54,473 nucleotides of DNA from a virus (lineage: Duplodnaviria > Heunggongvirae > Uroviricota > Caudoviricetes), in the IMG/VR virus record IMGVR_UViG_2588253749_000004. One strand, written 5' to 3'. This document shows, one piece after another, positions 49,010 through 52,906 of this stretch. Under the pieces are notes generated by a model, which saw only the letters and a program-made list of their open reading frames with translations, had not been told where the DNA came from and searched no databases. The translations under genes were made by a program, and so were the position numbers. Positions within the stretch are counted from its first letter, which is position 1. Each line of letters opens with the position of its first letter.

Positions 49010-51476
49010 AACAGTTCCGTAATAAACATCCGATTTCATTCTTATATGCCAGCAATGGCAGGGATTTGTTCACCCTTAAATCTGTAATGAGGTAAAACAA
49101 AATGAGTAAAGTCTTTATTTGCGCCGCCATTCCGGACGAACAGGCAATAAAGGAAGAAGGTGCCGTCACTGTAGCCACTGCCATTGAAGCCGGTGATGAA
49201 CGTCGCGCCCGCGCAAAATTTCACTGGCAATTCCTGGAACATTATCCGGCTGCTCAGGACTGCGCTTATAAATTTCTTGTTTGCGAGGATAAACCCGGTA
49301 TACCCCGCCCTGCCCTCGATTCCTGGGATGCTGAATATATGCAGGAAAACCGCTGGGATGAGGCGTCTGCTTCCTTTGTCCCGGTCGAGACTGAATCCGA
49401 TCCGATGAACGTCACTTTTGACAACCTAGCCCCTGAAGTACAGAACGCTGTCATGGTTAAGTTCGACACATGTGAAAACATCACTGTTGATATGGTGATT
49501 AGCGCACAGGAATTGTTGCAGGAAGACATGGCAACATTCGACGGCCATATCGTTGAAGCGTTGATGAAAATGCCAGAAGTTAACGCTATGTATCCGGAGC
49601 TTAAGCTGCATGCCATCGGGTGGGTTAAGCATAAATGTAAGCCTGGTGCCAAATGGCCCGAAATTCAGGCAGAGATGCGCATCTGGAAAAAACGTCGCGA
49701 AGGTGAACGCAAGGAAGCCGGAAAATACACGTCTGTTGTTGATCTCGCCCGCGCCAGAGCCAATCAACAGCACACTGAAAATTCAACAGGAAAAATCAAC
49801 CCGGTCATTGCTGCCATTCATCGCGAATACAAGCAGACATGGAAAACACTGGATGACGAACTGGCCTACGCTCTCTGGCCTGGTGATGTGGATGCCGGAA
49901 ACATTGACGGCAGCATCCATCGCTGGGCAAAAAATGAAGTTATCGACAACGACCGCGAAGACTGGAAGCGTATCTCGGCATCAATGCGCAAACAGCCTGA
50001 TGCCCTTCGCTACGACCGCCAGACTATTTTTGGCCTTGTCCGTGAACGTCCGATCGACATTCACAAAGACCCTGTGGCACTGAACAAATACATTACTGAA
50101 TACCTGACTACAAAGGGCGTGTTTGAAGATGAAGGAACAAATCAGAGCGCAACTGATACTCTCTCGTCGCCAGTACCAGAAACTGATGCAGTGGAAACGG
50201 CAATTCCAGACAACGAAAAAACCGAATGCAAAGTGGAAGTCGAACCATCTGTAGAACGTGAGGGGCCGTTCTACTTCCTCTTCACCGACAAGGATGGCGA
50301 AAAATACGGTCGCGCAAATAAACTTTCTGGTCTGGATAAGGCGCTGTCTGCTGGGGCTACTGAAATCACGAAAGAAGAATATTTCGCCCGCAAAAACGGT
50401 ACATACTCAGGTTCACAACAAAATACTGGTGCATCTGACACGACCGCACAACCAGGGTCAGTAAAAGTTACCGCTGACGAAGTAAACAAAATTATGCAGG
50501 CAGCCAATATCAGCCAGCCTGACGCCGATGAACTGCTTGCAGTATCACGTGGTGAATTTGTTGAAGGGATTAGCGACCCGAATGATCCGAAATGGATTAA
50601 GGGGATCCAGACCCGCGATTCTGTGAACCAGAACCAGCAAGAAACGGAACAGAACGACCAGAAAGCGGAACAAAACAGCCCAAATACGCAACAAAACGAG
50701 CCAGAAACGAAACAACCTGAACCAGTAGTGCAACAGGAACCGGAAAAGATCTGCACCGCCTGCGGTCAGAGCGGTGGCGGCAACTGCCCTGATTGTGGTG
50801 CGGTGATGGGTGACGCAACATACCAGGAAATATTCGATGGAGAGAATCAGCCTGAAGTTCAGGAAAATGATCCGGAGGAAATGGAAGGCACTGCGCATCA
50901 GCACAAGGAGAACACTGGCGGCAATCAGCATCATGCCAGCGATAGTGAAACTGGCGAGGCGTCAGATCCCTTAATTAAGGCAAACGGTCATCATAATCTC
51001 ACATCCACCAGCAGAACGGGGATTCATCTGATGATCGACCTTGAAACCATGGGAAAAAATCCCGATGCCCCGATTATCTCAATAGGTGCAATATTTTTCG
51101 ATCCGCAAACCGGAGATATGGGACCGGAATTTAGTAAGACTATCGATCTGGAAACTGCTGGCGGAGTCATTGATCGGGACACCATTAAATGGTGGCTTAA
51201 ACAATCACGCGAAGCGCAATCTGCCATTATGACCGATGAAATCCCGTTAGATGATGCACTGTTACAATTGCGGGAATTTATCGACGAAAACTCCGGTGAA
51301 TTTTTTGTTCATGTCTGGGGAAATGGAGCCAACTTCGACAACACGATTTTGCGCCGTTCATACGAACGGCAGGGGATCCCCTGCCCGTGGCGTTACTACA
51401 ACGATCGCGATGTACGCACAATCGTTGAGCTGGGGAAAGCCATAGACTTCGATGCCAGAACGGCTATTTGTAGTGG

Positions 51477-52223
51477 TCAAGTAATATTGGCCACGGTTTT
51501 ACAGTAAAAATGGTATCTGTTCTCTGACTCTTCCGGCGTCAGCCCACCGTTATAATGGTGAGGTCTGACGCTGTTGTAGTAGTTCAATATGTAATCATTA
51601 ATTTGCTGCCGGGCCTCGTCCTTGCCTGCGTAACCATTCGTTGGCACCCATTCTGTTTTCAGACTGCGGAAGAAGCGTTCCATGGGGCTGTTATCCCAGC
51701 AGTTTCCCCGCCGACTGACGCTTTGATTTATTCTGCAACGCCAGAGAAGTTGTTGATATTTAAGGCCTGTATACTGGCTTCCCTGGTCGCTATGGAACAC
51801 GACATCCCGGGGTTGGCCACGCGTCTCATAGGCCATCCGCAGGGCACTGCTTATCAGTGCGGTATCGGCATGCGCTGACAGACTCCAGCCGATAACCCTG
51901 CGGGCAAAAAGATCCATAACAACCGCCAGATAGCACCAGCGATTTCCTGCCCAGAGATACGTAATATCTCCACACCATACCCGGTCTGGCTCCGGTACTG
52001 CGAACTGACGCTCAAGCAGATTCGGCAGGCTGGTATGCTCCTGACGGGCATTTTTATACTGATGTTTTCCGGGCTGACAACTGCTCAGGTTCAGATATTT
52101 CATCAGACGTCCGGCACGGTAACGGCTCATCGGGACGCCGTTTTGAGTCAGCATTTCAGCCAGAGTGCGCGCGCCCGCAGAGCCCCGACTTTGGTTCCAC
52201 GCCCGGCGTATTTCGCTGCACAA
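51477..52223 (-). CDS. IS3-family OrfB transposase (DDE; expressed as OrfAB fusion by -1 frameshift)
   Basis: 248 aa from the first Met; DDE integrase core (HSDQGSQY...); the frame extends upstream towards OrfA. Confidence 0.85.
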
Positions 52224-52342
52224 CCTGACTCGTGCCGGATTAACCGTATCGCGTCGTTTTCGCCAGTACCGGTAACTGCTGCGGTGTATTTCCAGAGCAG
52301 AACACAGGCTGACAACCGTGTGGCTGTCACTTAGTCTGGCGG

Positions 52343-52654
52343 CTATCGTGAACCGTTCAGCGAGTCGGACATTAAGAGCGCGGTAGCCTTTTTTAATATC
52401 GTATTTTGTTCCTCCAGACGGCGAACTTGCTTTTCCAGCTCGCGGATACGTTGCTGGTCTGGAGTAATGGGTGTGGCAGAGGGCGTAATACCCTGGCGCT
52501 CTCGCCTGAGCTGGCGTACCCAGCTCTCAAGCGTGGTTGAACCGACATTCATCGCTTCACTGGCCTGTCGATATGAGTAGCCCTTATCAACAATCAGCTG
52601 TGCACATTCCAGCCTGAACTCAGGGGTGAAGGTTCGTTTGGTTTTCTTGTTCAT
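52343..52654 (-). CDS. IS3-family OrfA (HTH)
   Basis: About 103 aa from [13 protein letters not shown]; leucine-zipper/HTH. Confidence 0.85.
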
Positions 52655-52906
52655 TAAGTCACCTGTTTTGTGTTGTGGTGAGAATATCACCTTTCATCAG
52701 GTGGCCAAATTTAGTGTGCCACTACAATTCCATTCGAAGGTGAGCGCCATAATGCACTTGATGACGCCCGTTACCAGGCAAAATACGTTTCAGCTATCTG
52801 GCAAAAACTGATCCCGAGTCAGGCTGATTCTTAATGTTCAACTGTCGCCGGTTGTGACTGGTATTCTGCAACCGGCGCTCGTCTGATGTAAGAGATAAAG
52901 AAATCG

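Follow-up and report, generated by a model that had tools for sequence, protein, structure and literature searches.

What has become of the large exonuclease gene in the early-left region of the viral record IMGVR_UViG_2588253749_000004 (Caudoviricetes)? In this stretch of 54,473 nt, which we call the window, the gene stands as an open reading frame (ORF) of 801 amino acids (aa; 49102..51507, + strand). It carries the Exo I and Exo II motifs of a DEDDh exonuclease and runs into an insertion sequence (IS), beyond which the Exo III motif is found. We conclude that the locus almost certainly records a recent insertional pseudogenisation by an IS3-family element within a Qin-like lambdoid prophage. 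That such an element parts Exo III from Exo I and Exo II had been proposed in an initial annotation of the window, and this core reading held up on excision of the element, on comparison with identical intact alleles and on comparison with an empty-site allele.

In silico excision of 51469-52729, i.e., the IS and one ATT, gave an uninterrupted ORF of 823 aa (49102..52834, 2472 bp). The interrupted ORF consists of 789 native residues followed by 12 IS-encoded residues and a stop, and lacks 34 codons plus the stop codon of the exonuclease gene. In window coordinates the 3' piece lies in a different frame, because the 1261 bp removed are not a multiple of three, and it comes into frame only after excision. 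Its frame is open back only to 52715, and no ATG, GTG or TTG start was found in that stretch. The initial annotation was right about the 801-aa ORF with Exo I and Exo II and about the continuity of the reconstructed ORF, for which the segment to be excised is 51469-52729 and not 51469-52720. Some of its details needed revision: the gene does start at 49102, but its stop codon ends at 52834 and not at 52825; and the reading resumes in frame in the excised sequence, not in window coordinates. Exo III does lie on the 3' piece, which comprises 34 codons and a stop.

Both junctions of the IS could be read directly. The element begins with TGTAGTGG at 51469 and finishes with CCACTACA at 52726, with TG...CA ends and imperfect terminal inverted repeats, in which 20 of the 26 outermost positions agree. 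Its start is the one first proposed, but its end lies 6 bp further than the 52720 given earlier, and its length is 1258 bp and not 1249 bp. The claimed 3-bp duplication ATT is present in both copies (51466-51468 and 52727-52729). The empty-site allele (L002) aligns to 41102-51468 and to 52727-54473 of the window, and these flanks overlap by 3 bp in the allele's own coordinates; the ATT is therefore a true target-site duplication, and the trace left by the insertion is seen directly.

The reconstructed gene was 100% identical over 2472 bp, in a single piece, to genes annotated as 'exonuclease' in seven complete Escherichia coli genomes (H16-H22); the empty-site allele L002 is one of these. The interrupted form was found as well: a query spanning both junctions (51169-53026) gave an unbroken match at 100% identity to each of six complete genomes (503025, 503440, 504211, 503829, TW10573, and TK3896). 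In these genomes, the Prokaryotic Genome Annotation Pipeline (PGAP) reports two pseudogene pieces of a '3'-5' exoribonuclease domain-containing protein' flanking an IS3 family transposase. RefSeq annotation already contains this very insertion, and every component is known. The closest complete genome was that of the enterotoxigenic E. coli TW10573 (100% identity over 84% of a 12.5-kb query), in which the exonuclease gene carries an IS1A besides the IS3-family insertion. As IS elements often cause misassembly, an assembly or chimera artefact in which a repeat was collapsed into the gene had to be considered. However, a clean 3-bp duplication is present, and six complete genomes, each sequenced independently, reproduce both junctions with 100% identity. 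Identical junctions in six complete genomes therefore exclude an assembly artefact, and the probability that we leave to this explanation is negligible. The features of the locus are collected in Table 1.

Table 1. Exonuclease locus, its early-left neighbours and further insertions, in window coordinates
Feature	Position	Strand	Evidence or remark
Exonuclease gene, 5' part, codons 1-789	49102..51468	+	ORF list, YdfE/RecE identity, PF16473 at residues 642-789
Exo I codons D646-L-E648 (MIDLET)	51037..51045	+	Invariant in 37 homologues
Exo II aspartate D746 (GANFD)	51337..51339	+	Invariant column; aligns with DexA D119
Left ATT copy of target-site duplication (codon I789)	51466..51468	.	
IS-derived tail of interrupted ORF, 12 codons and stop	51469..51507	+	
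IS3-family insertion sequence, 1258 bp, related to ISEc31, distantly IS911-like	51469..52726	-	Ends, Pfam/NCBIfam, PGAP
Terminal inverted repeat, orfB end, TGTAGTGGTCAAGTAATATTGGCCAC	51469..51494	.	20/26 match to reverse complement of other end
IS orfB frame, DDE/rve domain, frameshift site to stop	51477..52394	-	PF00665 E 3e-27; NCBIfam IS3 E 3e-90
Slippery heptamer A AAA AAG, putative -1 frameshift giving OrfAB	52388..52394	-	IS position 333 (transposase orientation)
IS orfA, 103 aa, helix-turn-helix (HTH)	52343..52654	-	PF01527 (HTH_Tnp_1) E 9e-13; start agrees with PGAP coding sequence
Terminal inverted repeat, orfA end, reverse complement TGTAGTGGCACACTAAATTTGGCCAC	52701..52726	.	
Right ATT copy of target-site duplication	52727..52729	.	
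Orphaned exonuclease gene, 3' part, codons 790-823 and stop, without own start codon	52730..52834	+	
Exo III H796-N-A-L-D-D801	52748..52765	+	H and D invariant in 37 homologues
DicF small RNA	48407-48458	+	Rfam E 4e-14
dicB, cell-division inhibitor	48633-48821	+	
ydfD, lysis protein	48818-49009	+	
Excisionase gene, directly downstream, same early-left transcription unit	52907..53158	+	phrog_539 E 2e-35; PGAP
Tyrosine integrase, prophage end, adjoins rspB in related genomes	53193..54473	+	phrog_1; PGAP
IS21-family element, 340-aa IstA-like and 260-aa IstB ORFs, inside portal gene	~22011-23954		
IS66-family element, 512-aa transposase	~28589-31028		
IS2	~31656-32988		

The domain divided by the insertion was identified with profile and structure searches. 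PF16473 (Rv2179c-like 3'-5' exoribonuclease) matched residues 642-813 of the reconstructed protein (E 1e-66, 224.5 bits against a cut-off of 27, profile positions 2-177 of 177), in agreement with the DnaQ-like exonuclease that had been predicted. In the interrupted ORF the same match stopped at residue 789 and covered only positions 2-153 of the 177. The profile phrog_2082 ('exonuclease') was matched at 822 of its 823 positions (1857 bits). The fold was modelled with AlphaFold2 on the homologue P0008, which is 94% identical (predicted local distance difference test score 83, predicted template modelling score 0.79). The best match of this model in the PDB was T4 DexA (8KEL), followed by RNase T, oligoribonuclease (Orn) and a DnaQ domain (probability 1.00 for these top matches, DexA included), and DexA was the sole significant match in a sequence search of the PDB. 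As modelled, the C-terminal domain is a bona fide DEDDh fold, of the RNase H-like DnaQ type.

The insertion falls between the catalytic residues of this domain. D646 and E648 (Exo I) and D746 (Exo II) are encoded upstream of the IS, and H796 and D801 (Exo III) downstream; all five were invariant in an alignment of 37 homologues, the most distant of which was 58% identical. The histidine of Exo III serves DEDDh enzymes as the general base, and the aspartate is a metal ligand. Because H796 and D801 are missing, loss of catalysis is predicted for the 801-aa product, which should be dead as an enzyme, with no 3'-5' exonuclease activity.

The truncated protein might nevertheless still function, either as a residual exonuclease without Exo III or through its N-terminal YdfE- and RecE-like modules, in which case the gene would have been remodelled. 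A single ORF with the native start does retain 789 of the 823 residues, including Exo I, Exo II, and all N-terminal modules, and many assemblies contain alleles, described below, in which an in-frame deletion has spared the YdfE N-terminus, so that N-terminal fragments persist. Neutral decay, however, predicts the persistence of fragments equally well, no function is assigned to the N-terminal modules (phrog_5943), and both pieces are called pseudogenes by PGAP. H796 and D801 are, moreover, invariant in the family, and the catalytic residues of T4 DexA include H186 and D191 (PMC12153337), which lie beyond our phmmer alignment (this ends at DexA residue 162). We consider a functional 801-aa protein very unlikely and favour insertional pseudogenisation.

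By its sequence, the intact 823-aa protein is a mosaic. Its N-terminus is of the YdfE type and is followed by a RecE-like linker, which contains a zinc ribbon, and by a DEDDh domain like that of DexA. YdfE, the product of a pseudogene in the Qin prophage of K-12, shares 96% identity with residues 1-256, and residues 262-625 are homologous to RecE 278-591 (BLASTP, 38% identity overall, E 5e-61). The last ~150 residues aligned to RecE, with a CxxC...CxxC zinc ribbon, are markedly above the overall 38% in similarity. Along the corresponding part of the window (49885-50976, codons 262-625), the RecE-like similarity grows stronger in the 3' direction and breaks off shortly before the nuclease domain. 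One and the same linker is thus joined to two unrelated nuclease domains, the 5'-3' domain of RecE and the DEDDh domain. An identification of the exonuclease as RecE was rejected, as BLASTP similarity ends at RecE 591 and the NCBIfam equivalog scored 273 bits against a cut-off of 1269; no RecE chain was among the PDB sequence matches of the exonuclease.

Of 5426 complete E. coli genomes, 3533 gave a match over at least 80% of the length of the intact gene. Our search of the literature on ydfE of Qin and on Rv2179c-type phage proteins returned nothing on function. The intact protein would most likely act on DNA 3' ends early in phage development.

The inserted element shows the characteristics of the IS3 family throughout: overlapping HTH and DDE ORFs with a -1 frameshift, TG...CA ends, a 3-bp duplication and mobility. 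Its transposase matched the NCBIfam model transpos_IS3 with 303 bits (cut-off 160). The slippery heptamer falls in the overlap of orfA and orfB, and PGAP labels the element 'IS3 family transposase, programmed frameshift'. We found the IS at 6069 places in 2415 of the 5426 E. coli genomes, and 937 E. coli records, both chromosomes and plasmids, gave a best match of at least 99% identity. Plasmids of several genera, among them Escherichia, Enterobacter, and Klebsiella, carry it as well. Judged by this distribution, the element is evidently abundant and mobile.

The name IS911-like, used in the initial annotation, is apt at the level of the IS3 family and of the general layout. With IS911 the element shares a length of ~1.25 kb, TG...CA ends, imperfect terminal repeats, an orfA (HTH) plus orfB (DDE) organisation with an A6G -1 frameshift, and a 3-bp duplication. 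The ends of IS911A (TGAAGTGG...TTTGGCCACCTGA) resemble those of the element (TGTAGTGG...TTTGGCCACCTGA). However, the comparison with IS911 that had been suggested ruled out identity: against IS911A of K-12, the amino-acid identity was 57% for OrfA and 50% for OrfB, and the nucleotide identity was 67% over the first ~390 bp. The nearest named relative that we saw was a copy annotated as 'IS3-like element ISEc31 family', with 92.8% nucleotide identity over the full length. By ISfinder convention, isoforms of one element share at least roughly 95% nucleotide identity; because 92.8% is under this value, the IS is probably a separately named element, distinct from ISEc31. RefSeq and PLSDB label it merely 'IS3 family'.

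The Rfam family isrC ('Hfq binding RNA') gave a match of 150 bits (E 1e-36, 123 of 123 positions) to 52536-52658 on the - strand, where the 5' part of the IS orfA lies. This suggests that isrC describes a segment of this IS lineage and not an independent small RNA gene.

In the sequence of events that we propose, the 1258-bp IS3-family element, common in E. coli, transposed into codon 789/790 of an 823-aa exonuclease gene that corresponds, at full length, to the K-12 pseudogene ydfE. The slippery A AAA AAG would give rise to the OrfAB transposase through a -1 frameshift, and insertion would proceed through the circular intermediate of the copy-out/paste-in pathway, according to the IS3/IS911 paradigm. 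The insertion leaves Exo I and Exo II on the 5' piece and strands Exo III on a 34-codon fragment without a start codon, and the N-terminal modules of the interrupted gene may still be made. We take the insertion to be recent because the IS copies are near-identical (the 937 records mentioned above) and because the gene halves carry no extra mutations relative to intact alleles. Because the IS separates xis-int from the early-left promoter region and faces the other way, it may also lower read-through expression of the excision functions.

Three points weigh against this account. The transposition pathway is borrowed from studies of IS911 and IS3 and applies to this IS by analogy. The predicted loss of activity draws on the conservation of H796 and D801 together with the general DEDDh mechanism. 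Polarity on xis and int found no support in a consensus scan for promoters and terminators between 48400 and 53300, which gave no more sites than shuffled sequence (terminator-like sites were no commoner) and is uninformative on such an effect.

The genetic context of the exonuclease gene is that of Qin. The window corresponds to a Qin-like lambdoid prophage between ydfJ' and rspB, and the order of its early-left operon is a repressor-like (dicA-like) gene, ydfA, ydfB', DicF, dicB, ydfD, exo, xis, and int. DicF, dicB, and ydfD lie directly upstream of the exonuclease gene, as they do in K-12 Qin. PHROG scans of the early-left ORFs detected no RecT/Bet/Erf-type gene, and PGAP annotates none in the identical region, which bears out the earlier remark that no RecT/Bet-like partner is apparent in the early-left region. 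An 823-aa copy, intact and 99.3% identical, occurs in the infectious phage mEp460_ev081, where the order is again dicB-ydfD-exo-xis-int and an annealing protein is likewise missing; the absence of the partner is thus not a consequence of decay. Phage mEp460 encodes the domain as a stand-alone protein of 190 aa, directly upstream of xis. Pairs of a single-strand annealing protein and an exonuclease use 5'-3' nucleases of the lambda Exo/RecE type, and a DEDDh 3'-5' enzyme therefore need not have such a partner. The missing RecT/Bet partner is real and not an anomaly.

Other genomes show independent damage at the same locus. In K-12 (L005, 4079-5549), IS2E truncates ydfE. In strain PKF8 (L011, NZ_CP156813.1, 1501-4749), an IS1A lies near codon 122 of the exonuclease gene and divides it. 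In three pig isolates (L010, NZ_CP062868.1, 3478-4991), xis is split by an IS3-family element identical to that in the window. In addition, P0053, P0068, and P0080 represent in-frame internal-deletion alleles in which the YdfE N-terminus is fused to the distal DEDDh part and Exo I is removed. Such alleles are common in assemblies, where they lie on large contigs from several sources. Precomputed annotation lists two newer Pfam families, PF27430 and PF27432, on these three proteins, for which our local copy of Pfam gave no such matches.

The window itself holds three further insertions relative to the TK3896 copy (IS21-family, IS66-family, and IS2; Table 1). Because the IS21-family element interrupts the portal gene, the prophage is defective independently of the exonuclease insertion. 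The number of events raises the question of whether insertions in the exonuclease/xis region are selected, either because they silence a costly nuclease or because blocked xis-int functions lock in the prophage. Several independent events within a few kb speak for selection: this IS in exo (six genomes) and in xis (three genomes), IS1A in exo of PKF8, IS2E in ydfE of K-12, and IS1A together with the IS3-family element in TW10573. However, the three further IS elements sit in unrelated places of the window, as fits non-specific bombardment of a defective prophage, and 3533 genomes have retained alleles that span 80% of the gene or more. We regard selection as unlikely, and read the IS, deletion, and truncation events at the locus as ordinary IS-driven prophage decay.

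Some features elsewhere in the window were recorded in passing. A hok/sok module (41102-41276, - strand; Rfam sok, 120 bits) adjoins an AbiH abortive-infection gene (41672-42592, + strand; PF14253, E 8e-69), which is followed by a 465-aa ORF without a Pfam match (42676-44073, + strand). The hok/sok and AbiH region may be a defence cargo island of the prophage. Rfam IS009 (221 bits) matched 3342-3540 (- strand), next to pinQ and tail-fibre genes, and the Rfam cspA thermoregulator matched 33467-33852 (- strand), upstream of the prophage cold-shock gene.

The main value of these results lies in correct annotation: the two fragments belong to a single disrupted gene and should be recorded so, with the IS as a mobile element, which is the practice of RefSeq for the six genomes that share the insertion. 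The locus is also a clean example of the decay of a lambdoid prophage into a Qin-like cryptic prophage through IS bombardment. The intact gene, widespread in E. coli, combines RecE-like and DexA-like modules and has a putative nuclease role.

Among known nucleases, the exonuclease domain is closest to T4 DexA and, with it, to the DEDDh/DnaQ-like superfamily (RNase T, Orn, Rv2179c). The P0008 model has the same fold as DexA (PDB 8KEL), and the D-E-D-H-D residues are conserved. In contrast, the identity between the two domains is merely ~20%, and the ~640 N-terminal residues of the exonuclease have no equivalent in DexA. T4 DexA and its E. coli homologue EcD discriminate DNA containing 5-hydroxymethylcytosine (5hmC), and EcD protects against T4 (Kang et al. 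2025, PMC12153337). W152 of DexA, which has been proposed to act in 5hmC recognition (recognition residues W152 and D169; PMC12153337), aligns to Y765 of the exonuclease, in a column that is variable across the family; D169 lies past the end of the phmmer alignment.

EcD, also described as an 'HREX' exonuclease, is like the intact 823-aa protein a DexA homologue from E. coli in which the catalytic residues are conserved. It differs in being a stand-alone protein of another subfamily, and the two were not taken to be the same protein, since the EcD cloning primers encode different termini (MIDTET...TIPETYD; PMC12153337). By analogy with DexA and EcD, the intact 823-aa protein could be a prophage nuclease that acts against competing phages or modified DNA in the 'HREX' manner. 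PADLOC gave the exonuclease a generic DEDDh match alone (E 1e-5) and no defence-system assignment, and we see little chance that this anti-phage role is correct. If it were, the repeated IS and deletion knock-outs at the locus would reflect a cost of carriage.

RecE (exonuclease VIII) of the Rac prophage occupies the same early-left position upstream of xis-int and shares its residues 278-591 with residues 262-625 of the exonuclease. In place of the C-terminal 5'-3' nuclease domain of RecE, the exonuclease has a DEDDh 3'-5' domain, and recT adjoins recE in Rac, whereas there is none here.

The closest parallel is ydfE (b1577) of K-12 Qin. It lies at the same locus in the same order (dicB-ydfD-ydfE-...-intQ-rspB), is 96% identical over residues 1-256, and was also destroyed by an IS (IS2E). 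In K-12 Qin, however, no more than the first ~256 codons are left, the remainder of the gene having been lost together with xis, whereas the gene in the window retains its whole coding sequence, interrupted by one clean insertion.

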